Assembly: GCA_963708295.1 (NCBI GenBank) | Contig: CAVPSJ010000004.1 | Span: forward strand, 896,001-960,000 | Direction of reading: 5' to 3' | Source of the DNA: an uncultured delta proteobacterium | GTDB taxonomy: Bacteria > Desulfobacterota > BSN033 > UBA1163 | Length of the DNA: 64,000 bases | Shown here: positions 1,434 to 42,037 of the stretch, in pieces | How positions within the stretch are numbered: the stretch's first letter is position 1 | How the letters are laid out: every line of letters begins with the position of its first letter | The notes under the pieces: model-generated | What the model was told of the DNA's origin: nothing | What the model saw: only the letters and a program-made list of their open reading frames with translations | Database searches by the model: none | Translations under genes and position numbers: made by a program

Positions 1434-2878
1434 ATGAAGCCTATTATGACAAAAAAGGATTATATTCAGAGCCTCAAAGAACTCCATCACGCGGTCTATT
1501 ATAACGGGAAGCGCGTGGAGGATGTGACCGAGCACCCTGCCCTCCGGCCCCATATCAATGCGGCGGCCCTTACCTACGAGCTCGCTCTCCGCCCGGAACA
1601 TGAAGCGCTGATGACGGCGGTCTCTCATCTTTCGGGCAAAAAGATCAATCGGTTCACCCATATTCATCAAACCGTGGATGACTTGATCAAGAAAGTCCAG
1701 ATGCTCCGTCTCATTGCCCACGAGACAGGGCTCCTGTTTCCAGCGGTGCGTGGGACTTGACGCGTTAAACGCGGTCTATATGACCGCTTATGACATCGAT
1801 CAAAAATATAAGACAGACTATTTCGAGAAATTCAAGAAATATCTTCTTCATGTCCAGGAAAGCAATGTGATGGTGGTCGGCGGAATGACCGACCCGAAGG
1901 GTGACCGGTCCCTTTCTCCGTCCAAACAGGCAGACCCCGATCTTTTTACCCACGTGGTCCTGCGGCGGTCAGACGGCATTGTGATCCGCGGGGCAAAGGC
2001 CCATATGACCGGCGGCATCAATTCCCATGAGATTTTGCTCATGCCCACTCAAGCGATGAAAGAAGAAGAAAAAGACTACGCCTTGTCCTGCGCGGTGCCA
2101 TTGAACGCTCCTGGGGTGATCCTTATTTTCGGCCGTCAGACCAATGAAGAACGCAAATGCGAAGAGGGATTCGATGCCGGAAACACCCAATTCGGGTTGG
2201 TGGGAGGAGAGGCCCTCATCGTCTTTGAAGACGTCTTTGTTCCATGGGAGAACGTTTTTCTTTGCGGTGAATATGATATGGCCGGACTGCTGGTCGAGCG
2301 GTTTGCCACGCTGCACCGCCAGAACTACGGAGGCTGCAAGGGAGGGGTTTCGGACATCCTGGTCGGAGCAAGCGCCTTGGCCGCAGAGTACCAGGGAACG
2401 GCAGGGGCTTCTCACATCAAGGATAAATTGGCGGAAATGATGCACCTTGCCGAAACGCTCTACGCGGGGTCCGTGGCTTGCTCGGCCATGGGTTACTAGA
2501 ACCCCTTCCGGGGCCTATTATCCCGATCCGCTGCTGGCCAATACGACCAAATATAATGTCACGCGCCATATCTACGAAATTGCTCGGTTGGCCCATGATA
2601 TTGCAGGCGGGATCGTCGCCACCATGCCCTTCCATGGAGACATGGAAAGCAGCGAGGTGGGCCGCTACGTGAAGAAATATCTGGCCGGGGCTCAAGGGGT
2701 CCCGGTGGAGTCGCGGATGAAGATTCTCAGGCTCATTGAAAACATGAGCGGTGGCACTGCGCTGGTTGAATCCATGCACGGCGCAGGATCTCCTCAGGCC
2801 CAGAAGGTGATGTACGGACGGTTGGGAAATCTCGAACAGAAAAAACGCTGGGCTAAACGTCTGGTTCAAATCGATTAA
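1434..2878 (+). CDS. abfD: 4-hydroxybutyryl-CoA dehydratase/vinylacetyl-CoA isomerase (AbfD)-like protein, split by two frameshifts (~1730, ~2495)
   Basis: Three overlapping ORFs (1434-1760, 1714-2499, 2447-2878) join into one protein. Fe-S motifs CFQRCVG and HRQNYGGCK, plus MTDPKGDRS, GAKAH and ESMHGAGSPQAQK. Confidence 0.85.
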
Positions 2879-2972
2879 ATCGAAAAAGGAGAGAAGAGAG
2901 GTGAGCCGGAATTCCATCCCGGACAGTCCCCTTTCTTCAACCGTTCTGGACAAAGGGAGGGCAGGTTGAAAC

Positions 2973-4242
2973 ATGGTTAAGAAAGGGAGGAAAATCGGAA
3001 AGGGAGATAAAGGGATTCGCATCCCTGAACTTCTCTGGTATGGCAATACGGAGACGACTTTACATTTCCCCTCTTCATGGTCCGTTTCTTTCTGCCCGAT
3101 GCAAGGAGAAAAGAAGAAACGACTGACGCCGGTGGGGTTCAAAAAAGCTTTCCGGCAACCCATCGGAACGAAGCCGATAAAAGATCTGGCCAGGGGGAAG
3201 CGGGAAATCGTCATCCTCTTCGATGATATCACCCGGCCCACGCCTGTTTATGAGATCGTTCCCTTCGTGCTCGAAGAATTGGAAGAAGCGGGAATCTCCG
3301 ACCGGCAGATCCGGTTCGTCGTCGCTTTGGGAGCTCATGGAGCGCATACAGCCAATGATTTTCGCAAGAAGCTCGGAGAGGATGTCCTCGACCGGTTTCC
3401 CGTTTACAACCACAATAGCTTCGATTATTGCTCCCACCTGGGTAAAACCAGCTATGGAACTCCGGTCTCCGTCAACAAAGAAGTGATGGCGTGCGATCTC
3501 AAGATTGGAATCGGAGGCTTGGTGCCCCATCCCCTTTCTGGATTCGGGGGAGGAGGGAAGATTATTCTTCCGGGCGTTGCCCACATCGATTCCATTACCT
3601 ATAACCATGGAACGCTCGTTCAAAATCACCCGGAATGCGTAGGCCTCGGAAAGATGGAAGGCAACATTCCCCGCCTCGACATCGAGGAAGCCGCGAGGAT
3701 GGCCGGACTGGATTTAAAGATCGATGCGGTGACAAACCTCCGCGGAGAGATTATCGGCCTCTTTGTCGGAGACCCGATCTTAGAACATCGCGAAGGGAGT
3801 TTGTTTGCTGGCAAAGTTTATGCGACCGTTCCAGCCAAAGGCATGGAGATCGTCGTGGTCAACGCCTATTCCAAAGCGAGTGAATGTGCCATTGCCTCTT
3901 TTATGGGTGTCGGCTTCGTTAAGGGAAGAGGGCGGCGACCTGCTGGTAATTGCCAATGAGCCCGGAGGACAGGCGCTTCACTACCTCTTCGGGAAATTCG
4001 GAAATGGCGACTCAGGGAAGATCAAAATACCCGAACAGTTTTCGAAAAAAGTCCAGCGGCTCATTATCGTCTCACCGGTGGTCGATCATGTCGGAGCCCA
4101 TTTTTTTAAGACGGCTTCTTCGATTATCTGGGTCAAAAACTGGGAAGAGGCATTAGCTCTCCTGACGACCAAGTGGGGGAAAAAGGCGAAGGTCGCAGTT
4201 TATCCAGATGGCACGGTTCAATACTTTCCGTCCCTCATATAA
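2973..4242 (+). CDS. Nickel-pincer lactate racemase (LarA) family alpha-hydroxyacid racemase/epimerase, frameshift near 3905-3925
   Basis: DDITRPTP, ALGAH, VPHPLSGFGGGGKIILPGVA and NH motifs. C-terminal domain in ORF 3805-4242 ends KVAVYPDG. Confidence 0.85.
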
Positions 4243-4404
4243 AATTCTGAAAATAGATCTTTAAAATCGCCGATTGTTTCAAGATTTTTCAGCGGGACCG
4301 TGAAGAAGGAATTCTTCTATACGTTTCTTGTAACCGAAAATAGATAGAGAGAGAATAGGTCGAGGGACTTACTGATTTCTGGCTTCCCCTTCGCATCAAA
4401 GGAC

Positions 4405-5308
4405 TTAATCTTTTGTTACCTTCCTAGGTGGGAGAGTCACAGGAGGGTATGACTTATACATTTCGAGCTTTTGATTCAGCTCCTCCTTTCTTTCTTCGTA
4501 CATCCTATGACCCCGCTGTACCTCGCTAAGGTGCTTTGTCATCATGACCGGCGACCAACGGTCATGTCTTGATCCCTTCCTCATCAAAGACAACCTTAAC
4601 TTCACTCCCGGTTAGTTCTATTCTTCCTTGAATGCCGCACAGGGGACACTCCGCGGAATTTTCCCTCACAACGAGTAAGTTCTGGTGGCATAAGGGGCAG
4701 GTCCGAGCATCTGAGGCACCTACGTACTCCACTTCATTAGGGGGACGCTTGATCGCCTCCGCGATGTTGGAACCCAACCTCCTAACTCTTTTCATGGCCT
4801 CCTCGTTCAACAGAATTTGACCAGGTCTTGGGATATAGGTAACCACCATCTGGTCAACCAGTTTGAAGTCATGAGGCAGAAAGATTGCCATCAGAGGCAA
4901 TGCCAGGCTGATCCAATCTGTTCCACCGACCATGATATGGGCGCTATAATGAGGTTTCTGACGAAATCTCGTCCCGACGATCGCCATCCTATTTCCAATC
5001 ATGGTCAGGAAGCCGGGGGGCATCAGATGGAAGATCGGTGCACCCACTATGGCGCCGTCGCATTCGAGTAGTTTCTCGACGAAAAAAGGCATATCATCGT
5101 TTTCGATGATACACTTCGCACTCATCCCACCCTCTTTTAGTTCTCTTATCCGGCACGATTCACATCCGCTGCAAGGCTTAATGTTCAGATCATGCATGCG
5201 GATGATCTCAACTTCGGCCCCCAGTTCCTCGGCCCCCATGAGGGCTTCTTTGACCATAATTTCGGAATTTCCCAGCTTCCGACCACAACTAATCCCAAGC
5301 ACTTTCAC
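4405..5308 (-). CDS. Flavodoxin-fold NAD(P)H-dependent FMN reductase family protein with C-terminal Cys4 domain; flavone/flavonol reductase (FLR)-like. Frameshift near 4570.
   Basis: MKVLGISCGRKLGNSE..EALMGA..GAEVE, CxGCxxC, VGGTDW, CPLCH..CPLCG. The C-terminal tail lies in ORF 4405-4605. Confidence 0.75.
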
Positions 5309-5399
5309 AGCAGCGACCTCCTTCTTTATCCTTCACCTCTGGTTTACTATGGAGAGAATCTGTTCCGGCAATTTTCAGGTGATGTTTCGCCCATGCCGC

Positions 5400-6176
5400 T
5401 CACACGGCAGTGATATATCCATGGTAGTCCGTCAGGAAATCGTTGGTCGGACGCTCCAGAATAAACGTACTTACAAAATCCGAGTAGGGCTCCAGAAAGG
5501 GATATCTCTGATGCTTCGCCCAGGGCGGCTCCGTGTAAGCAGGCGGTGAATCGATGACCGATTTGCGCCAGCCGTCAAAGTTCTCGTACCACTGCTCGGT
5601 CAGTCGGTGCCAGGGAAAGAGGGACTCGACCGTACGGTGGCTATAATAACGTGTGAGGCCAGGCTGCTGAATGACTTCCTTTGAATGTACATTGAGAAAC
5701 CAATCCTCCCCTTCGTCCACCGGAACACCTTGTGGGTACTTGAAGGCGATAAGCCATCGAAGAATGGTTTTGTCGTTCAGCCTCAGTTCAGAGCCCAAGA
5801 AGTCTTCTGTGGGCCGGACTGGAATGATGCAGATGGCAGGAGGGTGTGGTCCTTCCGGTCGTCCGTCCCACTCCGTGGTGTAGGGTGGTTTACCTTCCTG
5901 CCCAACAATCCTGTCGTATCCAGGAGGGAAAGTGGCCTTCAGCGTTCCACCGAGCGGCAACGATTCACGCATCCAGAGCTCAGTGACTCGCCAGTTATAG
6001 TATCCGTACGGGATAGCTTCCGGAGGTGCGGGGACGACCCGGTAGCTCAAGTAACGCGACAGAAATGGGGCGATACGGCCCAGGTTCTCCGCAATGTGGT
6101 CCCGGAGCAACCAGCGCTCCATCAGTGGCAATTCATTCATACTGGTAATATTAAGAATCAGGACACGCTTATTCAC
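5400..6176 (-). CDS. Bacterial chalcone isomerase (Eubacterium ramulus CHI-like) family protein
   Basis: ERWLLRDHIAE (His at the position of CHI catalytic His33), FKYPQGVPVDEGEDWF, EQWYENFDGW and PPWAKHQRYPFLEPY..YHGYIT parallel the E. ramulus CHI sequence as recalled. Confidence 0.75.
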   Translation of the reverse strand: MNKRVLILNITSMNELPLMERWLLRDHIAENLGRIAPFLSRYLSYRVVPAPPEAIPYGYYNWRVTELWMRESLPLGGTLKATFPPGYDRIVGQEGKPPYTTEWDGRPEGPHPPAICIIPVRPTEDFLGSELRLNDKTILRWLIAFKYPQGVPVDEGEDWFLNVHSKEVIQQPGLTRYYSHRTVESLFPWHRLTEQWYENFDGWRKSVIDSPPAYTEPPWAKHQRYPFLEPYSDFVSTFILERPTNDFLTDYHGYITAV

Positions 6177-6295
6177 GGCTCCTCCCTAAATTCCCGACCC
6201 AAATTAAGAGCATCGCAGATTTTCTAATTAACCAATGCGAGCACAGAAATAAGACTCGCCTAGTAAGGAAACTGGCAATTCAAGACTTCGTATCC

Positions 6296-6890
6296 TTATT
6301 TGATATACTCCAGCGTCTTGGAATCATACTTCAAGCAACAGGGCACGTTCAATTTGGGATTCTTAATGACCTGATAGAGTTGATACAACTGCGGCAAGAA
6401 TCTGGGGAACCCCAGGGACTCCCGTTTATTATGATTGCTCAAAGCTTCCCGGGCTCCTTCAGTCCATCCCTTCTCCAACATATACGTGGAACGCATCCTG
6501 GTGCCGGTGGGCGACTCTTCGTACTCGTGCATGGTGTAGGAGATGGGCTCGCCGCCGACGGCAGGAGCATCCGGGGCAAGGCGGCCGATGACTACTGCGT
6601 GGCGAATAGATCAGGGGGATGGGGCAAGCTTTAGGAGATTCGAAGCGCATTCGCAATGTTTTTTCCGGCATCGGCGGCTCAACCTCCCGCACAATGTGAA
6701 TGGCTCCTACGTGTCCGTTCTGGGTTGGCGGGATTTCCCAGACGAAAGAAACATGTTCATCCGGGGCCCAGAGGTAATAGGCCTTTTCCATGTTGTCCCA
6801 GAACCAGTCAATCATTTCTGGAGTCACGCCCGGAATCTCATGATAATTCACAAGCGGGTCATACTCCTTTTTAGTCTCCGTTTCTTTCAT
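6296..6890 (-). CDS. DAPG hydrolase (PhlG)/phloretin hydrolase (Phy) family C-C hydrolase, frameshift near 6605
   Basis: PGVTPEMIDWFW, YYLWAPDEH, GTRMRS and C-terminal HNKRES..FLPQLY (HxxxE metal motif). SD AAGGAGGG upstream of ATG at 6890. Confidence 0.75.
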
Positions 6891-7006
6891 CGATCTTCCC
6901 TCCTTGAACTGCCCCATTTGCGTAGCCCCTGGTGGAACGAGACCAGTCGAGCAAATGCTAACTTTTTTTATTATCATTCGTTCCCGGACGGATGCCCCTT
7001 CGCGCT

Positions 7007-8248
7007 CTACGGTTTAGAGAGAGAAAAATCGCGAGAATAGACAGGCTGTTTCAAGAATTCCTCCGGTTTGTACTTCCAGAACTGAGAAACATTGGGATAT
7101 GTATAGATCACCGTATTCTGAAGATTTCCGCCTATCCTCTCCACCTTCCGAATATAAATGTTCTGAACCGGATTCAAATAAGGGTCCAGTTTCATGGGAC
7201 CGCGGGGAATGTCCCGAGGCTCCACTTTTTTCAAAGCCTCCAGAAGCTTCCCTTTGTTTTCAACATCTCCATTAATGGCCTTAATTGCCTCCACAGTCCA
7301 CCTTCCTCCTGTGTAGGTTCCTTCCGAGTAACAGGAAGCAGGCTTCTTTGCTTTTTCACGATAAGCCTTCACAAATTTTTTGTTGGCCAGGTTTTCAAGA
7401 GCTTCACTGTAATGGAGGGCTGTGATAATGCCCAACGCTTCGTCGCCCATGGAAGGAAGTGCATGTTCGTCCGTTATAAGCATACCAATGACAGGGATTC
7501 TTGCCTTAAGGCCATAATCCTGATATTGCTTAACGAACTGCATCCCTGAACGACCGGAAACCATGGCCAATACCGCATCGGCATCTTTTGAGAACTGCGG
7601 GAAATAAGGACTAAAATCCGTGATGGTTACAGGAACCCATAATTTTTTATTGATCTTTCCTCCCAGCTCTTCGAACGTTCTTTGAAAACCTCCCACGCTT
7701 TCCCAACCAAATGAGAAATCCAATCCTATGACGTCAATATTCCTGTACTTTAGGACTTTGTAAGCGTATTCTCCGAAAGGATGACAGGGTTGACTGGAAG
7801 CGTAGCCTGTTCGTACAATCCATTTTGCACGTTTTCTCTGCGTAAGATCATCCCCACTGACGATGGGATAAGTCGTAGGAATCTCCTTCGAATCAAGGTA
7901 AGGCGCGAGTGCATAACCGCAGGCTGATGATAAGACTCCGGTCAAAACATGGACGCCATCCTTCTCCACTAACTTTCTTACCTTTGTCATAGCTGTTGTG
8001 GGAAGCGCCTCGTCGTCCTCGGTGATCAGTTCTATTTTTCGGCCAGCCACTTGGTATCCGATTTCTTCAAGATAGAGCTCGAGTCCTAATAACATGTCCT
8101 TTCCATTTGCGGCTGCAGGCCCTGAAAGAGCCGTGATGAAGCCAATCTTAATCGGACCCTTCCCTTGGGCTTGCGATGCAGAAGACCCAAACAGGACTAG
8201 ACTAAAGGCCGCAACGATCCAAATTGCCACACACAATCTTTTTTTCAT
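7007..8248 (-). CDS. ABC transporter periplasmic binding protein (LivK/aromatic-acid-binding type)
   Basis: Signal peptide, IKIGFITALSGPAA..G, EDDE, RGPMKLD. Confidence 0.9.
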   Translation of the reverse strand: MKKRLCVAIWIVAAFSLVLFGSSASQAQGKGPIKIGFITALSGPAAANGKDMLLGLELYLEEIGYQVAGRKIELITEDDEALPTTAMTKVRKLVEKDGVHVLTGVLSSACGYALAPYLDSKEIPTTYPIVSGDDLTQRKRAKWIVRTGYASSQPCHPFGEYAYKVLKYRNIDVIGLDFSFGWESVGGFQRTFEELGGKINKKLWVPVTITDFSPYFPQFSKDADAVLAMVSGRSGMQFVKQYQDYGLKARIPVIGMLITDEHALPSMGDEALGIITALHYSEALENLANKKFVKAYREKAKKPASCYSEGTYTGGRWTVEAIKAINGDVENKGKLLEALKKVEPRDIPRGPMKLDPYLNPVQNIYIRKVERIGGNLQNTVIYTYPNVSQFWKYKPEEFLKQPVYSRDFSLSKP

Positions 8249-8385
8249 CGCTCGCTCCTCCTTTTTATCAAAAGACTATCCTTGAGGTTATAGGTATTTT
8301 TTACTGTGGATTCCGAAATTTTCTGTGCCTTTGTGTTAGAGCGAGGGACCAATCATCTTCGACCTAAACCATTTGTGTTGAGCTT

Positions 8386-9348
8386 TCACACTAGTTCCGT
8401 GTTTTTGATGGCAGCCTCTATCGCCTGCTTCTCCTGGCTGGTCAACTCCTGCATCGGCATACGAACGCGGCCATCCCCTCCTGCCATCCCCAAGAACTGC
8501 GTCCAGTATTTGAAAGTAGCCTGCTTCTTACCGGCGGGAGTCACCTTCGCTAATGCCTTTCGAATGGGGGCGAGCCTCCTGTAGGCTTCCCAGGCTTTGG
8601 CAATCTCTCCCCTGGTCGCTGCTTCGGTGTATTCCTTCATCAGCTTCAGTTTCTTACTTTGCATGACGAAGGGCATCGGATTGGCGATCAAAGCTGGCTG
8701 ACCATTCACGCTTAGATTGATCAACCAGTTGTCCTCTGTATCGGCGTCGCTGATGATGAAGTTATCACTGCAAAGAGCTCTTGCCAATGAGATGTCGGGG
8801 GCCGGGGCAATGTCCTTGACCGCAACAATGGTTTCAATCTCGGCGAGCCTGTTGATGAGCTTGGGACTCATCAAATAACCATGGGCCACCTGGTTGAAAA
8901 GCGCAATGGCGATATTCACCCTATCTGCAATGTACTTGAAGTACTGAAAAACACCCTCTTCAGTCATGGCACCGAAGTAGAACAAAGGGTTGATGATGAT
9001 AGCAAACTCCGCGCCGATGCTTTCGGCATATTTTGTCAGCTCCAGGGTATTCTCCACAGAAGGGTCCGAGGTATAGGGCATGATGACCATGTCCCCCTTG
9101 GTCTCTTCCATAGCTATATCCATGATCCTCTTTCGCTCGGCTATCGTCTGATTGAAGGCCTCACCCATGAGACCGTTAAGAAACATTCCCTCCATATTTA
9201 ACTCGTCGATGCAGTGGCGAAGGTTGCGCCTGAAGCCTGATTCATCAATCTTATAGTCCGGAGTAAAGGGCGTTAGTGTGGCACCCCAGAGACCCTTCAT
9301 ACGCTTCCGTGCATACTCTTTCGCTTCCGATTTGCGATATTTCATCAT
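8386..9348 (-). CDS. Dihydrodipicolinate synthase/N-acetylneuraminate lyase family aldolase
   Basis: TPF, NGLMGE, IVAVKD (Schiff-base Lys), VRMP. Confidence 0.85.
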   Translation of the reverse strand: MMKYRKSEAKEYARKRMKGLWGATLTPFTPDYKIDESGFRRNLRHCIDELNMEGMFLNGLMGEAFNQTIAERKRIMDIAMEETKGDMVIMPYTSDPSVENTLELTKYAESIGAEFAIIINPLFYFGAMTEEGVFQYFKYIADRVNIAIALFNQVAHGYLMSPKLINRLAEIETIVAVKDIAPAPDISLARALCSDNFIISDADTEDNWLINLSVNGQPALIANPMPFVMQSKKLKLMKEYTEAATRGEIAKAWEAYRRLAPIRKALAKVTPAGKKQATFKYWTQFLGMAGGDGRVRMPMQELTSQEKQAIEAAIKNTELV

Positions 9349-9456
9349 TAAGATTCATCCTCCTCTTCTTGCTACGTTTGCAAATGGACTCGGCCCGGGG
9401 CAAGGAAGAAACAACCTCCCTGCGCCCGGGCATCAGGATCATTCCGTCATCGATCT

Positions 9457-10425
9457 TTATTCGTAATCCCTAACGACTTTGACCGACGTCTTTTTCAATC
9501 CTTCGTACAGTTTCCTTCTGACTTCCGGCAGCAGCGGCAGCCGATGCTTCACCGTTGCTCTCGGAATCAGCCCCATCCAATAACAAACCTCTTTATACTT
9601 TGTGATCAGGTCAACCATGGGTCTGACATAAATGACCTCTTCCAGCGGACGGATGCGGTTGAAGTGAATCTTCCGCGCCTCGGACAGATCCCCCTTCTGA
9701 ACTGCATTCCACAAATCGATTAGGCCATGAGGATCCATGCACGCGTATCCTGAGAAAACCCCGTCACATCCCCATAAAAAGGTCATCATCGATGTTGTAC
9801 CCGGAAAGAGAGAGATATTCTCACGGCCCACCGCCCTGAGGGCCTGCATATCCGCCTCCAGCTTGAGCCACCGCGTATCCCATCCGTTCGCCAGTTTGAC
9901 CGCCACGAGATTGTCGATCTCCCTGAAGAGCTTTGCAAAAGCCTCCGTAGGATATTCACATGCCCCTTGATGATCGTAAGACTGGTGCATGACCACCGGG
10001 ATGTTCACCGCCCTGGCAATGGCTTTATGATACTCGACCCCATATCTCGGATCTTCCATCGTATTGAGCAGATAGTAAGCAGGGGCAAGAATCATGACCG
10101 TATCCACGCCTGCCTTCTCCAGCGCCCTGGCCTCTTCAACGCCTTCGTCGATCGTGTGTTTGTGGATCCCGGTGCAGATCGGAATTTTCCCCTGTATTTC
10201 CTCGCGGGCGATCTGAATCACTTTGATCCTTTCTTCTCTGGTCAGGCATTCTCCTTCTCCCGTATGGCCGTTTACGCCGATACCGGCGACTCCTGCCTTC
10301 ACCAGGAAGCGAAAAAGAGACCGCATGGCATCATAATCCACTTTCATATCCTCTGTAAAAACCGTGATGGGATACACATTCACCCCTGTCCATTTGCCCT
10401 TCCATTGAAACTTCTTAATTTCCAT
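9457..10425 (-). CDS. Dihydrodipicolinate synthase family aldolase (second paralog)
   Basis: NGHTGE..LTREER, LVAVKL (Schiff-base Lys), GCDG, PLLP. Confidence 0.85.
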   Translation of the reverse strand: MEIKKFQWKGKWTGVNVYPITVFTEDMKVDYDAMRSLFRFLVKAGVAGIGVNGHTGEGECLTREERIKVIQIAREEIQGKIPICTGIHKHTIDEGVEEARALEKAGVDTVMILAPAYYLLNTMEDPRYGVEYHKAIARAVNIPVVMHQSYDHQGACEYPTEAFAKLFREIDNLVAVKLANGWDTRWLKLEADMQALRAVGRENISLFPGTTSMMTFLWGCDGVFSGYACMDPHGLIDLWNAVQKGDLSEARKIHFNRIRPLEEVIYVRPMVDLITKYKEVCYWMGLIPRATVKHRLPLLPEVRRKLYEGLKKTSVKVVRDYE

Positions 10426-10489
10426 TCTTGCTGCTCCTTTCTCTTTTGTGTTTTGTCTGTCTGATCTTTTCTGCAGTCAAAAAAAGTCC

Positions 10490-11732
10490 TTATTTACATC
10501 TCGCATTTCCGGTCTGTGACGGTGGCACGGTGATCTCTTCTTCCGGAATAACGACCGGTTTGCCCGTATAGGGGAATGAGAAAAATTCATTATCTTTTAC
10601 GATAAGCGCCGCCTTGTAGGGGGTAATGATCTGGTGGTCGCAAGCCCTCATGGTTACTTTGCCCCATGGCATATTGTAGCTCGCCCCTTCCCAGGCTTGA
10701 ATCAGTTTCGCCGAATCGGTGCTTCCGGCCCTCTTGATCGCATCAAACATCCATTGCATGCCATAATAGTAATCGTTCACGCCAAAAACCGGGCTATAAA
10801 AGACTTTATCCAGATCCTTGTTCTTTTCCTGAAAGTCTTTAACAAACTTCTTTTGGATCGGGTTACCGAGGTCAATGAGGCTATGATGAATGACCAGATG
10901 ACCCAGGCCCGCTTCTTTTACGTCCTGCATAATGACCGGGTCAAACAAATAGCCTCCTCCGGTTACCGCTTTGCAGCCGAGCTGGCCTTCGGTCTTGATC
11001 AGGTTCCCTAAGTCCGGGCCGAAGTTGGTCGTTAAAATCACCTCTGCGCCGGAGGCGATGACCTTGCTGATATAGGGGGCGAAATCCTTCAAGGCAACGG
11101 GATGGTAGTCTTCTCCGACAAGCTGCGAGCCGGGAATTTTCTTCAAGTTTTGTTTGAATCCCTCGCCCGCTTCGCGGCCCAGTGAGGCATCCTGACAAAG
11201 GATATAGAATTTTTTAAATTTGCTGTACTTAGCAAAATAGGCAATCGTGGCGGCGGTTCGCTGGCCTGTGGTGGGGGTGGTTCTGAACACATAAGGGTTG
11301 AACTCGCTTCCGGTGATGCTTGCCGCTTCGGAGTTCGGGTTGACCGCAACCACTTTATATTTTTCAGCCGCCTTCATCATGGCTAAAAAGACATGACTTC
11401 CGAGACAACCGATCAGGACATCCGCTTTATCCTCGAGGATCAGTTTGGTCGCTTTCCTTACCGCCACATCGGGCTTAAAAGAGCTATCTTCTACGACCAG
11501 CGTCAATCTGCTTGCCAAGGAGTCCTCCCTTTGCATTGATTTCATCCACGGCGTATTTGGCGCCGAGTTGAAAACGGTCCCCAGAGGCCTTAAACGGGCC
11601 GGATATGGCATCGACCATTCCAATCACGATTTTGTCGTTGTCGGCCCTGGCCGGAACTTCCCAGGAAATCATTAACGTAGAAATGAATAAACCGGATAAC
11701 ACGGTGAGACCCAATATCTTCATTTTCCGCAT
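10490..11732 (-). CDS. Branched-chain amino acid-type ABC substrate-binding protein, frameshift near 11500
   Basis: The N-terminus (signal peptide, IVIGMVDAISGPF..G..AVDEINAKGGLLGKQI) in ORF 11484-11732 joins ORF 10490-11623 (VEDS, MRACDHQ). Confidence 0.85.
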
Positions 11733-11810
11733 GTTAAAACCTCCTTTGACGAATATCGAAATGACTGTGGTGATTTATCTACTTCAGCCGGTTTTCTCTT
11801 TTCACCTCCT

Positions 11811-12518
11811 TTAGACCTCAAGATATTTCTGGCGAATTTCATGGGCATCTTGTACTTCGCCCGCAGTCCCTTGAAAGACGATGGTCCCCTTGCTCATGAC
11901 ATAAAATCTGCCCGCGATCTTAAGGGCGACCTTCATGTTCTGTTCCACAAGGAGAATCGCCGTTCCAAGGTTATGGATGTCCAGGATCACCTTTTTCACC
12001 GTTTCCACAATTTTTGGGCCAAGACCTTCTGTGGGCTCATCTAGAAGCAGGATACGGGGGTTTCCCATGAGCGCCCTTGCCATGGTCAGCATTTGTTGCT
12101 CCCCGCCTGAGAGAAAGGCTCCTTTCTGCCGGTCGCGATTCTTTAACCCCGGGAAATAGTCGTAGACTTTTTCGATGGTCCAGCTTTCTTTGTCTTTTTT
12201 CTGCCGGGGTTTGATGCCGATCACGAGATTTTCCCTCACAGTCAGCCTCGGAAAGATTCTTCTCTCCTCGGGCACGTACCCCACGCCGTGATTGGCAATT
12301 TCATAAGGAGGCCATCCCGATATTTTTATCCCGTTAAAAAGAATGGACCCAGAGCGGGGGATAACCAAGCCGATGATCGATCTGAGGGTGGTGGTCTTGC
12401 CCACGCCGTTTCTTCCGAGGAGACAGACAATTTCTCCTGCGTCCGCAGTCAGGCTGATCCCCTGGAGCATATGGCTCTCTCCATAATAAGTGTCAAGATC
12501 GCTGATCTCTAAAAGCAT
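11811..12518 (-). CDS. livF: ABC transporter ATP-binding protein (LivF)
   Basis: GRNGVGKTT, LSGGEQQM, LLLDEP, LVEQN. Confidence 0.92.
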   Translation of the reverse strand: MLLEISDLDTYYGESHMLQGISLTADAGEIVCLLGRNGVGKTTTLRSIIGLVIPRSGSILFNGIKISGWPPYEIANHGVGYVPEERRIFPRLTVRENLVIGIKPRQKKDKESWTIEKVYDYFPGLKNRDRQKGAFLSGGEQQMLTMARALMGNPRILLLDEPTEGLGPKIVETVKKVILDIHNLGTAILLVEQNMKVALKIAGRFYVMSKGTIVFQGTAGEVQDAHEIRQKYLEV

Positions 12519-12521
12519 CGA

Positions 12522-13268
12522 TCATTCTTCCTCTTGGCCCAGATAAGCATCTTTCACTTGCGGATCATTCCGAATCTGCTCAGGGGAGCCTGAGGCCAGG
12601 ACTTTGCCGTAATAGATGACCGTGATCCGATTGGCGAGCCTGAAGACCACATCCATATCATGCTCAACGATGACGAGAGTTTTCCCTTCGGTCACCCTCC
12701 CGATGAGTTCAACCATCTCCGTGGTCTCGCCTTTAGACATTCCAGCGGTCGGCTCATCCAAAAGGATCAGGTCCGGGTCCATTGAAATGGTCAGGGCGAT
12801 CTCCAGGGCGCGCTGATGACCGTAAGAAAGTTCTCCCGCGATCTCATCTCTTTTCGCGGCCAGGCCGACCAGAGACATCACTCTCTCTGTCTCTTCCAGG
12901 ACGCCATCTATTTTTGAAAGAGTTGAGAAAAGGTTGTAATGGACCTTCCTTTTCGACAGGATGGCATTACGAATATTCTCAAAGACCGTCATGCTGCGGA
13001 AGATATTCGTGATCTGGAATGAACGGGCAACGCCTAAATGCGAGATTTTATGAGGAGGAAGACCCGTGATGTCTTTATCTTTAAATAAGATTTTTCCCCG
13101 GGTGGGGATATACTTGCCTGTGATGAGATTAAAAAGGGTTGATTTGCCGGCCCCATTCGGACCGATGACTGCATGTCTTTCTCCTTGTTCTATCGCCAGG
13201 TCGATTCCAAAAATCACCTTCAGTCCGCTGAAATCTTTTTGTAAACCCTGAATATCGAGAATCGCCAT
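12522..13268 (-). CDS. livG: ABC transporter ATP-binding protein (LivG)
   Basis: GPNGAGKST, LSYGHQR, LLDEPTAG, VEHDM, AYLG. Confidence 0.92.
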   Translation of the reverse strand: MAILDIQGLQKDFSGLKVIFGIDLAIEQGERHAVIGPNGAGKSTLFNLITGKYIPTRGKILFKDKDITGLPPHKISHLGVARSFQITNIFRSMTVFENIRNAILSKRKVHYNLFSTLSKIDGVLEETERVMSLVGLAAKRDEIAGELSYGHQRALEIALTISMDPDLILLDEPTAGMSKGETTEMVELIGRVTEGKTLVIVEHDMDVVFRLANRITVIYYGKVLASGSPEQIRNDPQVKDAYLGQEEE

Positions 13269-13274
13269 AATTTT

Positions 13275-14249
13275 TTACTGATTCTTTACAGAGACGAAGA
13301 TCGATTTCAATTTTTTCGGAATCAATCCGACGGCTCCTCGATGGAAATAGAGAACCAGGATGATAAAAAAGGCTCCCAGGATGAATTCCCATCGATCCGT
13401 CAAGTGACTGATCCAATCGGTAAAGTAGACGAAAATACCCGCTCCCAGTGCGGGTCCCAGAAAGGATCCTGTCCCTCCGAGGATGGCCATCATGATGACT
13501 TGGGTTGCCATCGCCAGGTCTACGGAGCTTGTAGCTACGAAATCCTGGAACAGGGCATAGAGGCTTCCTGCGATACCCGCGGAGAATGCCGCCATCGTAA
13601 AGACCAAAAGTTTCGAAAAATTGACGTTGTACCCGAGAAATTCAGGGCGGTCTTCATTGACCTTGATCGCCCGGATGGTGTTGCCGAAAGGCGTCCTTAA
13701 AAGATACCAGATCAGAAAAAGGAAAAACATGACGATGATGGCTGAAAGGCAATAGACCGTGCCCGCGTTCGACAGGTTGAGCGTCACGATTCCTAATTTC
13801 ATACTCTTGGGGACGAATCCCCCTATCCCGTCATCCCCGCCGGTCATGCTGCGCCATTTCCATGCGAGGGCCCAGACCAGCTGATTGAAAGCCATTGTCA
13901 ATAAGACAAAGTAGCTCGCCTTGCGCCTGACGCAGAAGAAACCGATGATCACCCCGCCGACCGCCGCTGCGATTCCCGACGTCAGGATCGCCAGGAGCAG
14001 AGGCATTCCGACGATACGTTTCAGGAGGATCGCCGTGGTATAGGCGCCGATCCCAAAATAGGCGGCATGGCCACAGGAGAGGAGGCCGGCATATCCAAAC
14101 AAGAGATTGAAACTGACTGCAAAGAGGGAGAAGTAAATGGCTTCGTTCAGTATCCGGATTTGGACAATCTTCAAAAAGACGGGGGCGAGCAGGATAAGAA
14201 GAATCGTCCCGATGAGAAGAACCCATTGGCGAAACGTTATTTCTTTCAC
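13275..14249 (-). CDS. livM: ABC transporter permease (LivM)
   Basis: GYAGLLSCGHAAYFGIGAY, TGGDDG, GGTGSFLGP; hydrophobic. Confidence 0.92.
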   Translation of the reverse strand: MKEITFRQWVLLIGTILLILLAPVFLKIVQIRILNEAIYFSLFAVSFNLLFGYAGLLSCGHAAYFGIGAYTTAILLKRIVGMPLLLAILTSGIAAAVGGVIIGFFCVRRKASYFVLLTMAFNQLVWALAWKWRSMTGGDDGIGGFVPKSMKLGIVTLNLSNAGTVYCLSAIIVMFFLFLIWYLLRTPFGNTIRAIKVNEDRPEFLGYNVNFSKLLVFTMAAFSAGIAGSLYALFQDFVATSSVDLAMATQVIMMAILGGTGSFLGPALGAGIFVYFTDWISHLTDRWEFILGAFFIILVLYFHRGAVGLIPKKLKSIFVSVKNQ

Positions 14250-15118
14250 ACCTTTTCTCCGAAAAGTCCGGCAGGCCTGATCATCAGAACGACGGCCATA
14301 AGAAGAAATTGGAAGACAAGGGCAAGCTGGGGAATGAACAGGACGCCGAAAGATTGAAGCTCGCCGATCATCAGGGACGCCACAAACGTCCCCCCAAGGC
14401 TTCCCAATCCCCCAACCACCACGACAACGAAAAGGTCGGCCAGCATGTCAATTCCCATTGCCGGATGGGTGCTCAGAAAAGGCCCTGCAACAACCCCTGC
14501 CAAACCAGCCAGCGCGGCTCCCCCTGAAAAGACATACAGAAAAAGTCTGGAAACATTAATGCCGAGACAATTGACCATATCCGCATCGGATACGGCGGCC
14601 CGAATGGCAATGCCGACACGGGTCTTCATGAAAATATACAAGAGAACAAACAAGGCAACGAAGGAAATCAGAAGAACGAATAACCGGTAATCCGGATAGG
14701 TCAGCCCGGTGATGCGGACCGATCCTGAAAGGGCAGGAGGAATCCTTGAAGGCAGGGTGAAATTTCCCCATATCCATTTCACGACTTCTCCGATGACGAA
14801 GAAAATTCCAAGCGTAATGAGAAGCTCATAGGCATGGCCGAAGGCATGGACCTTCTTGAGAAAAAACCGCTCGACCAGGGCCCCGAGAAGACCGACGACG
14901 ATCGGAGCGATGACCAAAGCGAGCCAGAAATTGCCGGTCTTCACAAACACGGTGTACCCCACATAGGCTCCCACCATATAGAAGCCGGTGTGGGCGATGT
15001 TGAGCACTCCCATCATTCCGAAGACCAGACTGAAACCCGAGGCGACAAAGAATAACAACATTCCGTAAACTAGCCCGTGAAGGGCTTGAATGACAAAGAT
15101 TGGAAGCATTGATCCCAT
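14246..15118 (-). CDS. livH: ABC transporter permease (LivH)
   Basis: ASGFSLVFGMMGVLNIAH, VVVVGGLGS, RPAGLFG. Confidence 0.92.
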   Translation of the reverse strand: MGSMLPIFVIQALHGLVYGMLLFFVASGFSLVFGMMGVLNIAHTGFYMVGAYVGYTVFVKTGNFWLALVIAPIVVGLLGALVERFFLKKVHAFGHAYELLITLGIFFVIGEVVKWIWGNFTLPSRIPPALSGSVRITGLTYPDYRLFVLLISFVALFVLLYIFMKTRVGIAIRAAVSDADMVNCLGINVSRLFLYVFSGGAALAGLAGVVAGPFLSTHPAMGIDMLADLFVVVVVGGLGSLGGTFVASLMIGELQSFGVLFIPQLALVFQFLLMAVVLMIRPAGLFGEKV

Positions 15119-15276
15119 GAGAGACCCCCCATCAGGTGAGCTGATTTTTCCTTCTTCACTCGGGCGATTTCCGAGATGGTCCCTGTCTAGACAAACGTCG
15201 TATCCGTTTTAAATTTCTTTTTCTGTGAGTCGATCCCATTGCCTCCTTCGGCGGCAGGCAGGGGTCTCTCAATCCA

Positions 15277-16083
15277 TCATGAAGTTCTATTCCTCCAATG
15301 ATTATCTTTCCCCATCGATTCTGGATGGAAAAGTTGAGCTTCAATTTCGGAGGCCGCCTTTCTCAGCTCGGCCACGATGGGTGATTTAACTTCGCACTTG
15401 ATCCTTGGCGAAGGCCCTATGACGACCACGGAACCTGCAGGTTCATTCTTATGATTGAATATGGGTACACCGATGGCGTTGATGCCGATGTCAATTTCTT
15501 CCCGGCAAAAACCGACTCCTTGTTTTTTTATCTTTTCGATATGTCTTCTGAATTTCTCGGGATCGGTAATGGTCTTGTGTGTGAGACGGGCCAATTTATT
15601 TTTCAGAATATCGTCCACCACCTCTTGCTTGGAATATGCCAGGATGGTTTTCGTGCCGGCTCCTGCATGAGTGGCAACTCTGCCACCGATATGCCCCCGG
15701 ATGCTGGAAGCCTTGGCCCCTTGAACAACATAGGTAATAATTCCCTTGCCGCCCGAAACCATTTCAATTACCACGGTCTCTCCCAGTTTTTTCCCGAGCT
15801 CTCCCAGCACCGGCATGGCAACGTTGGTTAACCCCTCGCTGACAGATTCCATGGCGGTTTGTCCCAATGAAAAAATGGAGAGGCCGAGCCTGAATTTGCG
15901 TGTGAGCGGGTTCTGCTGAAGAAACCCCTTTCGGGTCAGGATTTGAATCGTCCGGCTCACGGTGGCCACATGGAAGCCTGTGATCCGGTTCAGGTCGGTT
16001 GTCCCCAGTTCAAGATTCGTGGGACTGAAGGTCATGAGGATTTCCAGCGCCTTTTCTACTGCATTCGGTTTATTCGGAGCCAT
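15277..16083 (-). CDS. IclR family transcriptional regulator
   Basis: N-terminal AVEKALEIL..ATVSR HTH; C-terminal effector domain with EEIDIGINAIGVPIF. Confidence 0.92.
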   Translation of the reverse strand: MAPNKPNAVEKALEILMTFSPTNLELGTTDLNRITGFHVATVSRTIQILTRKGFLQQNPLTRKFRLGLSIFSLGQTAMESVSEGLTNVAMPVLGELGKKLGETVVIEMVSGGKGIITYVVQGAKASSIRGHIGGRVATHAGAGTKTILAYSKQEVVDDILKNKLARLTHKTITDPEKFRRHIEKIKKQGVGFCREEIDIGINAIGVPIFNHKNEPAGSVVVIGPSPRIKCEVKSPIVAELRKAASEIEAQLFHPESMGKDNHWRNRTS

Positions 16084-16220: not shown

Positions 16221-17333
16221 TCAGACTTTCAATAATCGTTCTGCATTGAGATGATAAAGTTTTTCCTTGTCCGAGTCGCTGATCGGCGTCCTCTCAACGT
16301 CTGCAACCGCCTCCTTCATCCCCGCATAGGGATAATCAGCGGCGAAAAGAACGTGATCGGCCCCCATCGCGCTGATAGCGCAGATCAACGCCTCCGGCCT
16401 ATATCGGCCGCTCGTCGTGACGTAGATATTCTCTCTGACATATTCCGAAAGCTTTCTATTCAGGGTCCTGGGCTTATACGCCATGACATACCCTTCGTCC
16501 AGGCGGTCGAGCAGGAACGGAAGCGTTTCGCCCAGATGCCCGAGGATGAGGCGCGACTTCGGGAAGGCGTCGAACACGCCTCCTCCGACGATGCGCAGGG
16601 CGTGTGTGGCAGTCTCGGCGACCCAACTCCAGACGGGCCCCATCAGTTCGGAGTGTCCTTCATAGATTTTTCTTCCCTCCGGCGACGGCTCGGCGACGTG
16701 GAGGTAGATCGGGACGTCAAGGGCCTCGGCGCGCTCCCAGATCACCCAGAATTTCTTCTCGTCGAGATACTCCCAGTTCGTGTGCCCCTGGATCATCGTC
16801 CCCTTGAATCCGAGCTGTTTGACACACCGTTCGAGTTCATCGGCGGCCGCTTTCGGGTCCTGCGTCGGCAAATTGGCCCACCCTGCGAATCGGCCCGCGT
16901 ACTTCTGAATGATCTCCGCCTGCTGGTCATTAAACCGCTTTGCTGTGGCCACAGAGACGCCGGCGTCGTTGACTCCCTGGAACCCCGGAGAACTGCACGC
17001 GATCACCTGCATGCCGATGCCGAGATTATCCATAAGGGGAAGGCGGATTTTCTCAAAATCGACGAGGCCCGCCCCTGCGTGCGGAACCGCCTTCATATTG
17101 ACCGATGAAGGTGTGTTTTTCGTCTTCGCCCATTCGAGATTCAAACCCACGATCTCCGAGTTGCGCCAATGCTCTTCAATGCAGATCTTCTTCATCCCCG
17201 TTCCCTTGGCGCTGGCAGCCGTCTGGGCGACAGCCTCCCCTTTCCGGAGGCCTGCCTGCACGCCCGCCGTGACCGCCAGAGCTCCAAGGGCGGTCTTCCC
17301 GAGAAATTCTCTTCTTCCCATTTTTTTTCCCAT
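16221..17333 (-). CDS. Amidohydrolase_2 family protein (gamma-resorcylate/2,3-dihydroxybenzoate decarboxylase-like) with twin-arginine signal
   Basis: KICIEEH, PIYLH, ILGHLGETLPF, ADYPY; N-terminal GRREFLGK plus hydrophobic stretch. Confidence 0.85.
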   Translation of the reverse strand: MGKKMGRREFLGKTALGALAVTAGVQAGLRKGEAVAQTAASAKGTGMKKICIEEHWRNSEIVGLNLEWAKTKNTPSSVNMKAVPHAGAGLVDFEKIRLPLMDNLGIGMQVIACSSPGFQGVNDAGVSVATAKRFNDQQAEIIQKYAGRFAGWANLPTQDPKAAADELERCVKQLGFKGTMIQGHTNWEYLDEKKFWVIWERAEALDVPIYLHVAEPSPEGRKIYEGHSELMGPVWSWVAETATHALRIVGGGVFDAFPKSRLILGHLGETLPFLLDRLDEGYVMAYKPRTLNRKLSEYVRENIYVTTSGRYRPEALICAISAMGADHVLFAADYPYAGMKEAVADVERTPISDSDKEKLYHLNAERLLKV

Positions 17334-17806: not shown

Positions 17807-18791
17807 ATGAAAAAAGAACATCGGGTTTTATTTTTGGGTTGTGTCTTGACCGCATTGGCACTGTTCTCACGGAGTCCCTCCCATTCAGGCAGAGACCTAT
17901 CCTGACGCATACCATTCAAGTCGTCATCCCGGGGGCACCTGGAGATGCTGTAGACCTGGCCGGAAGGGTCGCCATCGAAGAGCTGGAAAAGATTCTCAAA
18001 GTTCCGGTCGTTGTGATCAATAAGCCGGGCGGAGGCGCCTCCGTGGGCACAGACTTTGTGGCCAAGGCAAAGAAAGATGGCTATACGCTCCTTTACAGTA
18101 TGTCATCGGGTTTAGTTTACAATCCGGCTTTTAATCCGGAGGAGACCCCATACAATACCCTTCGGGATTTCGATCCTCTGGCCCTTCACGTCACCTTCCC
18201 GGATGGCATCTGGGTACAGACCGAGGCCCCGTGGAAGAATTTTGCCGAGGTGATCGATTACTCCAAGAAGAATCCCGGGAAATTTCGTTGCGGAACGCTG
18301 GGCGTAGGTTCCATCAACCATTTCAGAATCGAGATTCGTGAAAGCGGTGACCGGCGCCGATATTACGATGATCCCCTTTAAAGGAGCCATGCCCGCTCTC
18401 ACGGCTCTCTTGGGAGGCCATACCGAGTCCTCGTTTACGGCGGTCGCCATTACCTACCCGCATTATAAATCGGGCAAGGTAAGACCCGTGCTGCTCGACC
18501 AGAAGGTGGCTGACCTTCCCGGAGGACTTACGCTGCAGGAGATGGGCTACAAGCGCGGTCTCCCGTTGACCTTTTTTGCGTTCCTTGCGCCCGCTGGAAT
18601 TCCCGAAGAGGCAAAGAAAGGTTCTGGTTCCGGCCATAGAGAAAGCGGCAAACAATCCGGAGGTCATCGCCAAATTGAAGAACATGCGGATTATCCCCAA
18701 CTATAAGCCGCCCGAAGAACTGAAACAGATGATCAGCGAAGATTATGAAAATGCGCGGCAGGTCGTCAAACAGATGAGATTAACCAAGTAA
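17807..18791 (+). CDS. Tripartite tricarboxylate transporter substrate-binding protein (Bug/TctC), about 3 frameshifts
   Basis: SD AGGAGG and ATG at 17807. YP..IQVVIPGAPG..D, VVINKPGGG, KDGYTLL, IPFKG..AL.ALLGG, APAGIP are spread over three ORFs. Confidence 0.85.
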
Positions 18792-39843: not shown

Positions 39844-40860
39844 CTATCCAATGGCTCCGGATTCCATTTCCTCTTCAGATTTCTTGGGGGGCCAATTATC
39901 CAATTTCATTCCTAAACTGAGTCCCATCTCCGTCAAAATCTCCTTGATCTCGTTAAGAGATTTTCGGCCGAAGTTCTTGGTGGCCAGGATTTCCGCCTCT
40001 GTTTTTTGAACCAGATCGCCGATCAACTTAATGTTCGCATGCTTCAGGCAATTTGCGGACCGGACGGAGAGTTCGAGTTCATCCACACTTCGGAGGAGGT
40101 TTTCATTAAAGGCCTCCTTTTCCTCCTCATCTTCAGGATACGACATTTCCTCCTCTTCCTCTTCAAAGGTGATGAAGATGGAGAGTTGATCTTTCAAAAT
40201 CTTTGCCGAATGGGCGACGGCTTCCTCCGGATTCAAACTTCCATCGGTCCAGACCTCCAAGATCAGCTTGTCATAATCGGTGATCTGTCCCACGCGGGCA
40301 TTCGTCACGGCGTAATTCACCTTCTTGATCGGAGAAAAGATAGAGTCCATGGGAATGGTCCCAATCGGTTGGCCCTCTTCTTTATTGCGCTCTGCAGGGA
40401 CATACCCCCTCCCCATCTTCACCACCATCTCCATGGAAAGCTTGCCATCTCTCGAGAGCGTAGCAATATAATGGTCCGGGTTGAGAATTTCTACCGCATC
40501 GCCCGTAAGGATATCCCCCGCCTTCAGGACTTTGGGGCCCTCTGCCTTCACCCGGATGGTTTTCGGCCCTTCGGTATGAAGCTTTAACCGGACCTCTTTG
40601 AGGTTGAGAATGATCTCCGTGATATCTTCCTTGGTTCCGGGGATGGTCGAAAACTCATGGAGCACCCCGTCGACCTTAAGGGACGTGATCGCTCCCCCCT
40701 GCAAGGAAGAGAGGAGGATTCGTCGAAGGGAATTCCCGATGGTAATGCCGAAACCCCTTTCAAAGGGCTCCGCCGTAAACTTTCCATAAGTGGGTGTCAG
40801 CGTTTCTTTTTCTACTTCTAACCGTTTCGGTCGAATCAGGTCTTTCCAACTTTTTTGCAT
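39844..40860 (-). CDS. rpoA: RNA polymerase alpha subunit
   Basis: [35 protein letters not shown]. Confidence 0.98.
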
Positions 40861-40872
40861 ATCGCCTCCAAA

Positions 40873-41499: not shown

Positions 41500-41532
41500 C
41501 GCAGTTCCTCCTAGTTTAATTCCATTGAACTT

Positions 41533-41639
41533 GATTACGAAGATTAAATAAAATATGATTACACCGATCGAGCCTCAAGATTACGCGGCCCAAAAACCTG
41601 TTTGAATCTGTGTAATCCCGTTTAGAAATCTGTGTAATC
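41533..41639. repeat. Inverted-repeat hairpin (GATTACAC / AATCTGTGTAATC units) at the rpsK-rpsD junction
   Basis: Three GATTAC units face two AATCTGTGTAATC copies; overlaps the rpsK stop codon. Confidence 0.75.
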
Positions 41640-42027: not shown

Positions 42028-42037
42028 AATCCCTCCT

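Follow-up and report, generated by a model that had tools for sequence, protein, structure and literature searches.

A probable flavonoid-type catabolic module of hydrolase-like, chalcone-isomerase-like and flavone-reductase-like genes in an uncultured, dsr-encoding delta proteobacterium

Does an uncultured delta proteobacterium of the Desulfobacterota carry the means to take plant flavonoids apart under anoxia? A few gut Firmicutes are the organisms in which the anaerobic cleavage of flavonoids has been elucidated, and the question is raised here by three adjacent genes, A, B and C, in a stretch of 64,000 nucleotides (GenBank assembly GCA_963708295.1, contig CAVPSJ010000004.1, positions 896,001 to 960,000 of the forward strand). 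We call this whole stretch the window and number its positions from its first letter. An initial annotation, made from the sequence alone, had likened A to the hydrolases Phy (phloretin hydrolase) and PhlG (diacetylphloroglucinol, or DAPG, hydrolase), B to the chalcone isomerase (CHI) of E. ramulus and C to the flavone reductase (FLR) of F. plautii. We put at roughly 60% the probability that A-B-C constitutes one catabolic module for flavonoid-type plant polyphenols, horizontally acquired by a Dsr-encoding anaerobe of wetlands and peat.

The open reading frame (ORF) listing and the sequence place the three genes side by side and co-oriented between 4405 and 6890, as the initial annotation had described them, and on the minus strand:

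Gene A, 6890..6296, minus strand: short phloretin-hydrolase/DAPG-hydrolase-like gene of about 197 amino acids (aa), split over two reading frames (6890-6459 and 6610-6296), with an overlap near 6610-6590.
Gene B, 6176..5400, minus strand: bacterial chalcone-isomerase-like gene, intact ORF of 258 aa.
Gene C, 5308..4405, minus strand: flavone-reductase-like gene of about 300 aa, split over two reading frames (5308-4562 and 4611-4405), which join near 4611-4562.

Each gene has a GGAGG-type ribosome-binding site just 5' of its start codon, and the intergenic spacing is 119 bases between A and B and 91 bases between B and C. The motifs quoted in the initial annotation are all present, namely GVTPEMIDW and HxxxE (H-N-K-R-E) in A, and VGGTDW and CPLCH...CPLCG in C.

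Gene B matched PF18232 (Chalcone_N) at 30.7 bits against a cut-off of 25, and aligned with E. ramulus CHI over its full length (residues 7-256, E 4.1e-25). A profile of 27 relatives of B gave E 1.1e-37 against the same enzyme (2-265 / 8-280). The AlphaFold (AF2) model of B, with a predicted local distance difference test score (pLDDT) of 91.5, was matched by Foldseek to the CHI structures 4C9S/3ZPH at E 7e-22 and TM 0.84-0.86. With regard to catalytic residues, His27 of B corresponds in an ungapped stretch to CHI His33 and is invariant in 27/27 aligned relatives, while Tyr42 and Thr65 correspond to Tyr48 and Thr71 in the ungapped N-terminal alignment. His33 is the catalytic base and Tyr48 stabilises the carbonyl, according to PMC8361940. 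Thr71 is an A-ring ligand along with Gln69 and Gln101, and the region of Gln101 is placed differently by the pairwise and the profile alignment. The CHI-like assignment of B and the histidine at the catalytic position, both proposed initially, are therefore borne out by domain, alignment and fold.

Gene C likewise proved to be what had been proposed. It matched PF03358 (FMN_red) at 46.2 bits against a cut-off of 24 and the structure 7D38, which is F. plautii FLR with chrysin (accessible part of PMC7862272), at E 2e-34. P0241, a public intact protein of 300 aa that we used as a proxy for C, gave E 4.9e-34 over residues 1-248 of 300 and 1-260 of 310, with an identity of about 36% (counted by hand from the alignment) and a coverage of 83%. 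These values lie within the published rule for FLR (at least 30% identity, at least 80% coverage and E of at most 1e-10; Yang et al. 2021, PMC7862272, accessible part), and in the same source all 12 of the 12 homologues tested under the identity and coverage limits reduced apigenin. The substrates assayed there were flavones, flavonols, an isoflavone and anthocyanidins, and chalcones are unlisted in the part accessible. Two pocket residues of FLR, Gly106 and Trp149, are kept in P0241, and Ser147 is replaced by Thr. The CPxCH...CxxCG motif (a Cys4 ribbon) is also kept in C, which has a C-terminal tail as well. Among the listed FLR tail residues (His271, Ile275, Thr279 and Lys282) the comparison covered the His271 position, at which His is invariant in 28/28 FLR-like proteins as judged by ungapped extension, phmmer having left the tail unaligned. 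A phmmer search of the C-terminal 52 residues of C against the PDB sequences returned nothing related.

The evidence for gene A comes mainly from its fold. The N-terminal fragment matched PF18089 (DAPG_hydrolase) at 24.2 bits against a cut-off of 22.7, and an orthologue in a Chloroflexota locus (L075) reached 47.2 bits. The AF2 model of the intact form (public protein P0153, with 43 relatives) had a pLDDT of 92.9. It was most similar to M. abscessus phloretin hydrolase (5XEY, E 2.2e-8, TMq 0.65) and next to PhlG (3HWP, E 1.1e-6), both ahead of all other proteins with the Bet v1 fold. The HxxxE motif (His153, Glu157) and His46 align with H259, E263 and H123 of the M. abscessus enzyme, and His46, His97, His121, His153 and Glu157 are invariant in 43/43 sequences. 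The zinc ligands of PhlG, reportedly assigned by He et al. in 2010, are said to be His129, Glu160, His270 and Glu274; for one of these four no counterpart in A was assigned. NCBIfam gave no match for A, B or the intact proxies.

The short form to which A belongs is a large environmental family (133 matches), and some sources name its members "DAPG hydrolase family protein" or "phloretin hydrolase". By source names the family also occurs in metagenome-assembled genomes (MAGs) of Asgard archaea (Jord-, Loki-, Frey- and Promethearchaeota) and Hadesarchaea (P0152, P0164, P0173, P0189 and P0194). A second short paralogue lies in the same genome as the window, about 600 kb away (L002, C4:295235-295690, PF18089 E 5.8e-15). 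Near it are an IclR paralogue that is 60% identical to the IclR protein of the window, and genes matching the flanks of CHI-like genes in other loci, probably a transporter.

What could three such enzymes do together? The known anaerobic route proceeds through FLR, CHI, an ene-reduction and Phy to phloroglucinol and phenylpropionate (PMC10470551 and PMC7862272, accessible parts). By this parallel, the trio would most likely serve C-ring opening and C-C cleavage of flavone/flavanone-type polyphenols. Gene product C, with reduced FMN, would act on the C2=C3 double bond and so turn a flavone or flavonol into the saturated flavanone or flavanonol. B, with His27 as general base, would then open the heterocyclic C-ring to a chalcone, whose double bond may be reduced by an enoate reductase encoded elsewhere or by the FLR-like C itself. 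In the last step A, as a putative metal hydrolase using His46, His153 and Glu157, would cleave the C-C bond of the dihydrochalcone to yield phloroglucinol and phenylpropionate. The analysis itself establishes homology, folds, the conservation of key residues, repeated linkage and intact genes in the population, while we infer the substrates, the order of the steps and the performer of the chalcone reduction from the characterised relatives.

A number of observations weigh against this interpretation. A, B and C each belong to a divergent, uncharacterised subfamily, and no assayed member of the three subfamilies was found in the literature searched. For A, the Pfam score is marginal, direct sequence comparison with phloretin hydrolase was non-significant (E 0.64 for 5XEY, and 0.21), and A has no counterpart of the roughly 90-aa N-terminal domain of PhlG and Phy. 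The match begins at position 34 of the PF18089 profile and residue 92 of the Phy chain. The initial assignment of A to the Phy/PhlG family is thus upheld by Pfam and the model fold, and not by direct sequence match. B is only 24-25% identical to characterised CHI, and its model is mostly coil at residues 70-113. Moreover, Arg63 of B, nearly invariant among the relatives, occupies the position of the A-ring ligand Gln69, and a 10-residue deletion spans the lid residues Asn122 and Arg125, which have no counterparts. The lid of CHI comprises residues 106-130. Meinert et al. (PMC8361940) state, with data not shown, that "branch B" CHI-like proteins, in which helices a3-a5 have become loops, showed no CHI activity, in contrast to the active "branch A". 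On the other side, the lid is reported to be dispensable, since an E. ramulus CHI from which it had been deleted was 5-fold less active and so kept one fifth of its activity (PMC9694015). In C, the window subgroup is without some 25-30 residues of a loop found in FLR and its Clostridium-type homologues. As for the genome, the 64-kb window holds no enoate reductase or Fcr. A search through the BKACE and Cyclase families showed no clustered phloroglucinol pathway (PGR/DPGC/TAL) in the genome either, with two matches for each family on different contigs. BKACE and Cyclase are the families of two phloroglucinol-pathway enzymes (PMC10470551, accessible part).

Several of these points would also fit a reading in which the families and the kind of chemistry are the same (ene-reduction, His-dependent ring opening or isomerisation, and retro-Friedel-Crafts/Claisen C-C hydrolysis) and the natural substrate is a different one. 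Candidates are other acylphloroglucinols, aurones/auronols, and polyphenols of peat plants that are dihydrochalcone-like or anionic. In its substrate pocket B departs from characterised CHI by the near-invariant Arg at Gln69, by the loss of Asn122/Arg125 and by Ser44, which stands at the position of Phe50. The reported inactivity of the "branch B" proteins on chalcones and the missing FLR loop of C point the same way, and PhlG, of the family of A, acts on diacetylphloroglucinol, not on flavonoids (PMC8003664). A wider polyphenol-modifying cassette is hinted at by the molybdoenzyme pair beside two of the related trios (see below). On the other hand, in two of the three families the only members that have been characterised act on flavonoids, the linkage of the trio parallels the known flavonoid pathway, and the catalytic His and Tyr of CHI as well as the substrate-contact residues of FLR are retained. 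We therefore consider a different natural substrate unlikely, though it is a reading of real weight, and keep flavonoid-type polyphenols as the preferred substrates.

A different objection is that the trio is decaying in its host, A and C being true pseudogenes and the pathway non-functional. In the assembly two of the three genes are indeed frameshifted: a single extra base breaks A at about 6602-6605, and another breaks C around 4564. The genes flanking the trio, of the HpaB and LarA families, are split by frameshifts, too. Direct alignment to related metagenome contigs, however, showed the extra base to be absent at site A in 4/4 contigs (L097, L099, L105 and L100) and at site C in 4/4 (L097, L099, L100 and L101). 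In the related loci A and C are each single-frame in 4/4, with ORFs of 197 aa and 303 aa, respectively, in L099. Short-read contigs from four runs (X1, X4, X8 and X18) were also compared over 4300-7000. One base fewer was found at 6602-6605 in those of X4 (freshwater sediment), X8 (peat) and X18 (a soil RNA library), which are runs from different studies, and at 4564 in those of X8 and X18; the X1 contigs cover neither site. Public proteins agree with this, since P0153 (197 aa) spans the junction of A intact and is near-identical to both window fragments, and P0241 is 98% identical to the long fragment of C. Both halves of A and of C are open and conserved apart from the extra base, and the HpaB-family and LarA-family genes are intact in L099 (502 aa and 422 aa). 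Splits of this kind affect genes throughout the assembly, including several Oxidored_FMN genes on other contigs, and consensus errors are therefore favoured. We conclude that the breaks in A and C are consensus errors of the long-contig assembly, or at most private mutations, and that the genes of the population are intact. Decay of the trio is accordingly very unlikely.

Regarding the assembly in general, a TctC gene at window 17839-18381 is split, as are Oxidored_FMN genes at C15:327726-328662, C16:148189-149176 and C17:307317-308325, while those genes for ribosomal proteins and translation that were checked (39844-57881) are unbroken. The consensus quality of the assembly looks uneven.

If the genes are intact, do they belong together? 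We followed the CHI-like gene in other genomes. A protein query found it in none of 14 same-genus and 10 other same-family genomes (0/24), and gave two weak matches elsewhere in the class. Among 400 further genomes of the GTDB phylum, a family profile found it in 2. When 1.84 billion representatives were searched exhaustively, only 227 matched at E <= 1e-3 and 121 at E <= 1e-10. In a scan of species genomes 131 stretches were confirmed to encode a CHI-like relative, from which 79 distinct loci were kept. These span Acidobacteriota, Chloroflexota, Actinomycetota, Pseudomonadota, Thermodesulfobacteriota, Bacillota, Holophaga foetida and a Bathyarchaeia MAG. Lateral transfer fits so rare, patchy and phylogenetically scattered a distribution, and on these grounds the gene looks horizontally acquired.

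Linkage was counted within 8 kb of the CHI-like gene, after the ORFs of the 79 loci had been clustered and representatives checked with Pfam. A DAPG-hydrolase-family gene was present in at least 17 of the 79 loci, of the short type in 10 (13 by tblastn) and of the long type, which includes the N-terminal part, in 7 more. An FLR-like gene was found in 8/79, and an Oxidored_FMN/Pyr_redox_2 enoate reductase also in 8/79. The following loci carry all three families or, in the last case, the corresponding set with an enoate-type reductase:

L075, Chloroflexota: CHI-like, FLR-like and DAPG hydrolase.
L012, Syntrophorhabdaceae: CHI-like, FLR-like and long DAPG hydrolase (298 aa); same DNA as genome G380.
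L018, Desulfopila: CHI-like, FLR-like and DAPG hydrolase.
L054, Clostridia: CHI-like, FLR-like and DAPG hydrolase.
L057, Dehalococcoidaceae: CHI-like, FLR-like and DAPG hydrolase.
L020, Desulfobacteraceae: hydrolase-CHI-reductase, with a reductase of the enoate type.

The gene order differs in each of the five FLR-containing trio loci (L075, L012, L018, L054 and L057). The survey found the three families linked in at least five distant lineages with shuffled order, and this recurrence argues for joint function. Alternatively, the three might be neighbours without a functional tie, C being a generic flavodoxin-like reductase, B a protein with a ferredoxin fold and A a Bet v1 ligand binder. In favour of this, scanning 4100-8500 for promoters (5 found, 4.6 expected) and terminators (5 found, 5.3 expected) gave about what chance would give and no operon evidence, and 41/65 CHI-like loci of the tree set have neither partner within 5 kb. 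We nevertheless hold this reading to be highly improbable, because PF18089 is otherwise so rare (0/14 control genomes, and two copies in the 4.9-Mb genome of the window) that its frequency beside CHI-like genes and the five shuffled trios are hard to reconcile with chance neighbourhood.

A bolder version of the module hypothesis is that CHI-like protein, FLR-like protein and DAPG hydrolase form a self-sufficient, horizontally mobile cassette, in which the FLR-like protein replaces Fcr or another enoate reductase (ERED) and reduces flavone and chalcone, or chalcone alone. A hint of such a swap is that L018 has an FLR-like gene where its sister L020 has an enoate reductase; these two were sisters, both Desulfobulbia-type MAGs, in a quick tree of CHI-like proteins. 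Likewise, of the two other carriers in the phylum, G380 has the FLR-like gene with a long hydrolase, whereas G081 has the order CHI-reductase-CHI with an enoate reductase and no PF18089. A DAPG hydrolase accompanies 5/8 FLR-like loci versus 1/8 enoate-reductase loci. FLR-like gene and enoate reductase occurred together in 0/79 loci against about 0.8 expected by chance, which is not significant. On the quick tree the partner labels (FLR-like, enoate reductase and DAPG hydrolase) did not cluster, the number of changes needed being equal to the number of rows. We regard the self-sufficient cassette as doubtful.

Some further features of the CHI-like loci should be mentioned. In G081 three CHI-like copies lie within 8 kb, with the enoate reductase between two of them (L127, C23:34138-42041), and Oxidored_FMN has 30 matches in this genome. 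EthD-domain proteins, whose ferredoxin-like barrel is like that of bacterial CHI, are encoded beside CHI-like genes at L012:9827-10603, L081:5029-5847 and L023:14910-16790; in L023 a single protein of 627 aa combines the EthD domain with a long DAPG hydrolase. A molybdoenzyme of the dimethyl sulfoxide (DMSO) reductase family and an Fe-S subunit follow the trio at L099:11888-15084 (817 aa) and L075:12368-15576 (821 aa). The two molybdoenzymes are 65% identical, and none is present in the window. They may be polyphenol-modifying enzymes, such as a dehydroxylase. Pyrogallol-phloroglucinol transhydroxylase was considered for the L099 protein and rejected, as trimethylamine N-oxide (TMAO)/DMSO reductases matched better (6e-63) than the transhydroxylase (6e-40, partial). 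The genome of the window itself gave 32 matches to a molybdopterin oxidoreductase query over many contigs, with unusually many paralogues of the DMSO-reductase family.

The surroundings of the trio in the window are as follows, all by Pfam:

7007..8248, minus strand: periplasmic solute-binding protein (SBP; Peripla_BP_6), co-oriented with the trio, its end 116 bases upstream of A.
8386..16083, minus strand: two DHDPS-family lyases, a second binding protein, two ABC ATPases, two permeases and an IclR regulator.
1434..4242, plus strand: HpaB-family gene and LarA-family gene, convergent to the trio, with split Pfam matches.

The SBP is a possible uptake component, its tie to the trio being one of position, and the order SBP-A-B-C is preserved in L097, L099 and L105. 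For the genes at 8386..16083 the NCBIfam matches were sub-threshold only. The sister lineage L099, whose nucleotide identity is about 87-92%, has this island too: it runs from IclR over the ABC transporter and both DHDPS-family genes to SBP-A-B-C, and the LarA and HpaB-family genes follow as in the window. The context upstream of the SBP is thus in the same order in L099, and it is different in L075, L018 and L012. Just past the IclR regulator lies an Amidohydro_2 gene (16221-17333). Hydroxybenzoate decarboxylases are among the members of this family, and the gene is consistent with an aromatic-catabolic island.

Is the host the dsr-encoding anaerobe that the initial annotation took it for? 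For the dsr genes the answer is yes: dsrA (568.9 bits, over the cut-off) and a dsrB-like neighbour lie about 7 kb past the end of the window, and inside it are NrfD, Fer4_11 and Fer4 proteins resembling DsrP, DsrO and DsrK (DsrMKJOP-like). The dsrA match (L116, C4:967076-968203) contains one in-frame TGA, which could be an assembly error or recoding. No aprA over the cut-off was found in the genome, which is 91.5% complete with 5.6% contamination. Beyond the window the genome has 11 Oxidored_FMN matches, of which the closest is about 38 kb away from it. The stretch was reported, at least in part, from 20 of the 24 runs listed, and the habitat evidence derives from X1, X4, X8 and X18, in which near-identical DNA occurred in contigs from wetland, freshwater sediment and peat, and from one soil RNA library; contigs from an RNA library are no proof of transcription. 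Taken with the probable function of the trio, the host, which we take for a sulfite reducer, probably helps in plant-polyphenol degradation in waterlogged soils.

How far does this change what is known? The initial annotation had described the pathway as known mainly from gut clostridia, but it is not confined there, CHI, FCR and PHY being encoded in genomes from anoxic wetland soil (PMC8084988, accessible part). According to the same source, CHI, FCR and PHY proteins of Holophaga and of the Sporomusales MAGs CTSoil_80/81 were found during tannin breakdown (McGivern et al. 2021). Expression of the anoxic flavonoid pathway in fen peat (PMC11153144, accessible part), CHI, FCR and PHY transcripts in catechin-fed peat (bioRxiv 10.1101/2024.10.22.619724) and phloroglucinol pathway clusters in sulfate reducers (PMC10470551, accessible part) are in print as well. 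Current views are therefore not overturned by our findings, as both the wetland CHI/FCR/PHY genes and the phloroglucinol genes of sulfate reducers were already described in the accessible parts of these sources. In one literature search for chalcone isomerase, phloretin hydrolase and Desulfobacterota, the paper examined among the matches listed did not link the enzymes to the phylum. New are this combination of three subtypes, the fact that it recurs with no enoate reductase, and its occurrence in a DsrAB-encoding lineage.

Polyphenols are held to lock up carbon in waterlogged soils, an idea called the "enzyme latch". A compact, laterally spread module of CHI, FLR and Phy type in a Dsr-encoding bacterium would, if functional, mean that more kinds of organism and more enzyme subtypes can release this carbon without oxygen. 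If the bolder cassette hypothesis were true, Dsr-encoding anaerobes would strip phloroglucinol from flavonoids in peat and wetlands, and polyphenol turnover, and hence the latch, would be tied to sulfur cycling. For biochemistry and biocatalysis the trio offers three uncharacterised subfamilies: a CHI whose lid is shortened, a Phy of one domain and an FLR of reduced length.

Compared with the characterised enzymes, B has in common with E. ramulus CHI (CHIera; 3ZPH, 4C9S and 4D06) the two ferredoxin-like domains, an alignment over the full length and the residues equivalent to His33, Tyr48 and Thr71. It differs in length (258 versus 282 aa), in the shortened lid segment 106-130 without Asn122/Arg125 and in the change of Gln69 to Arg. 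C shares with F. plautii FLR (7D38-7D3B) the FMN_red flavodoxin core, the N-terminal CxxCxxC...C motif, the CPxCH...CxxCG ribbon and the C-terminal tail; the loop that matches FLR 107-137 is shorter in C by about 25-30 residues. A has the Bet v1-like catalytic fold of Phy (E. ramulus; M. abscessus 5XEY) and PhlG (3HWP), and its GxTPEM..W..W...LW.P..H and HxxxE..FLP..Y motifs can be aligned with those of the M. abscessus enzyme. Identity to Phy/PhlG in the structural alignment is 17-20%. Phy and PhlG are 274-294 aa long, and their PDB chains of 279-288 aa compare with 197 aa for A.

With regard to whole systems, the sulfate-reducer phloroglucinol pathway is clustered (PMC10470551, accessible part), whereas no clustered PGR/DPGC/TAL was found in the genome of the window. 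The wetland-soil sets of McGivern et al. (PMC8084988, accessible part) belong, like the trio, to environmental anaerobes with genes for cleaving the flavonoid C-ring, and the CHI-like genes of CTSoil_007, CTSoil_081 and CTSoil_082 (L046, L076 and L040) are 41-43% identical to B, a likeness at the family level that is known from sequence. In those sets, CHI is paired with an enoate-type FCR, and L040 and L076 have Oxidored_FMN nearby. In the window, by contrast, the sole neighbouring reductase is FLR-like, and the host encodes DsrAB.

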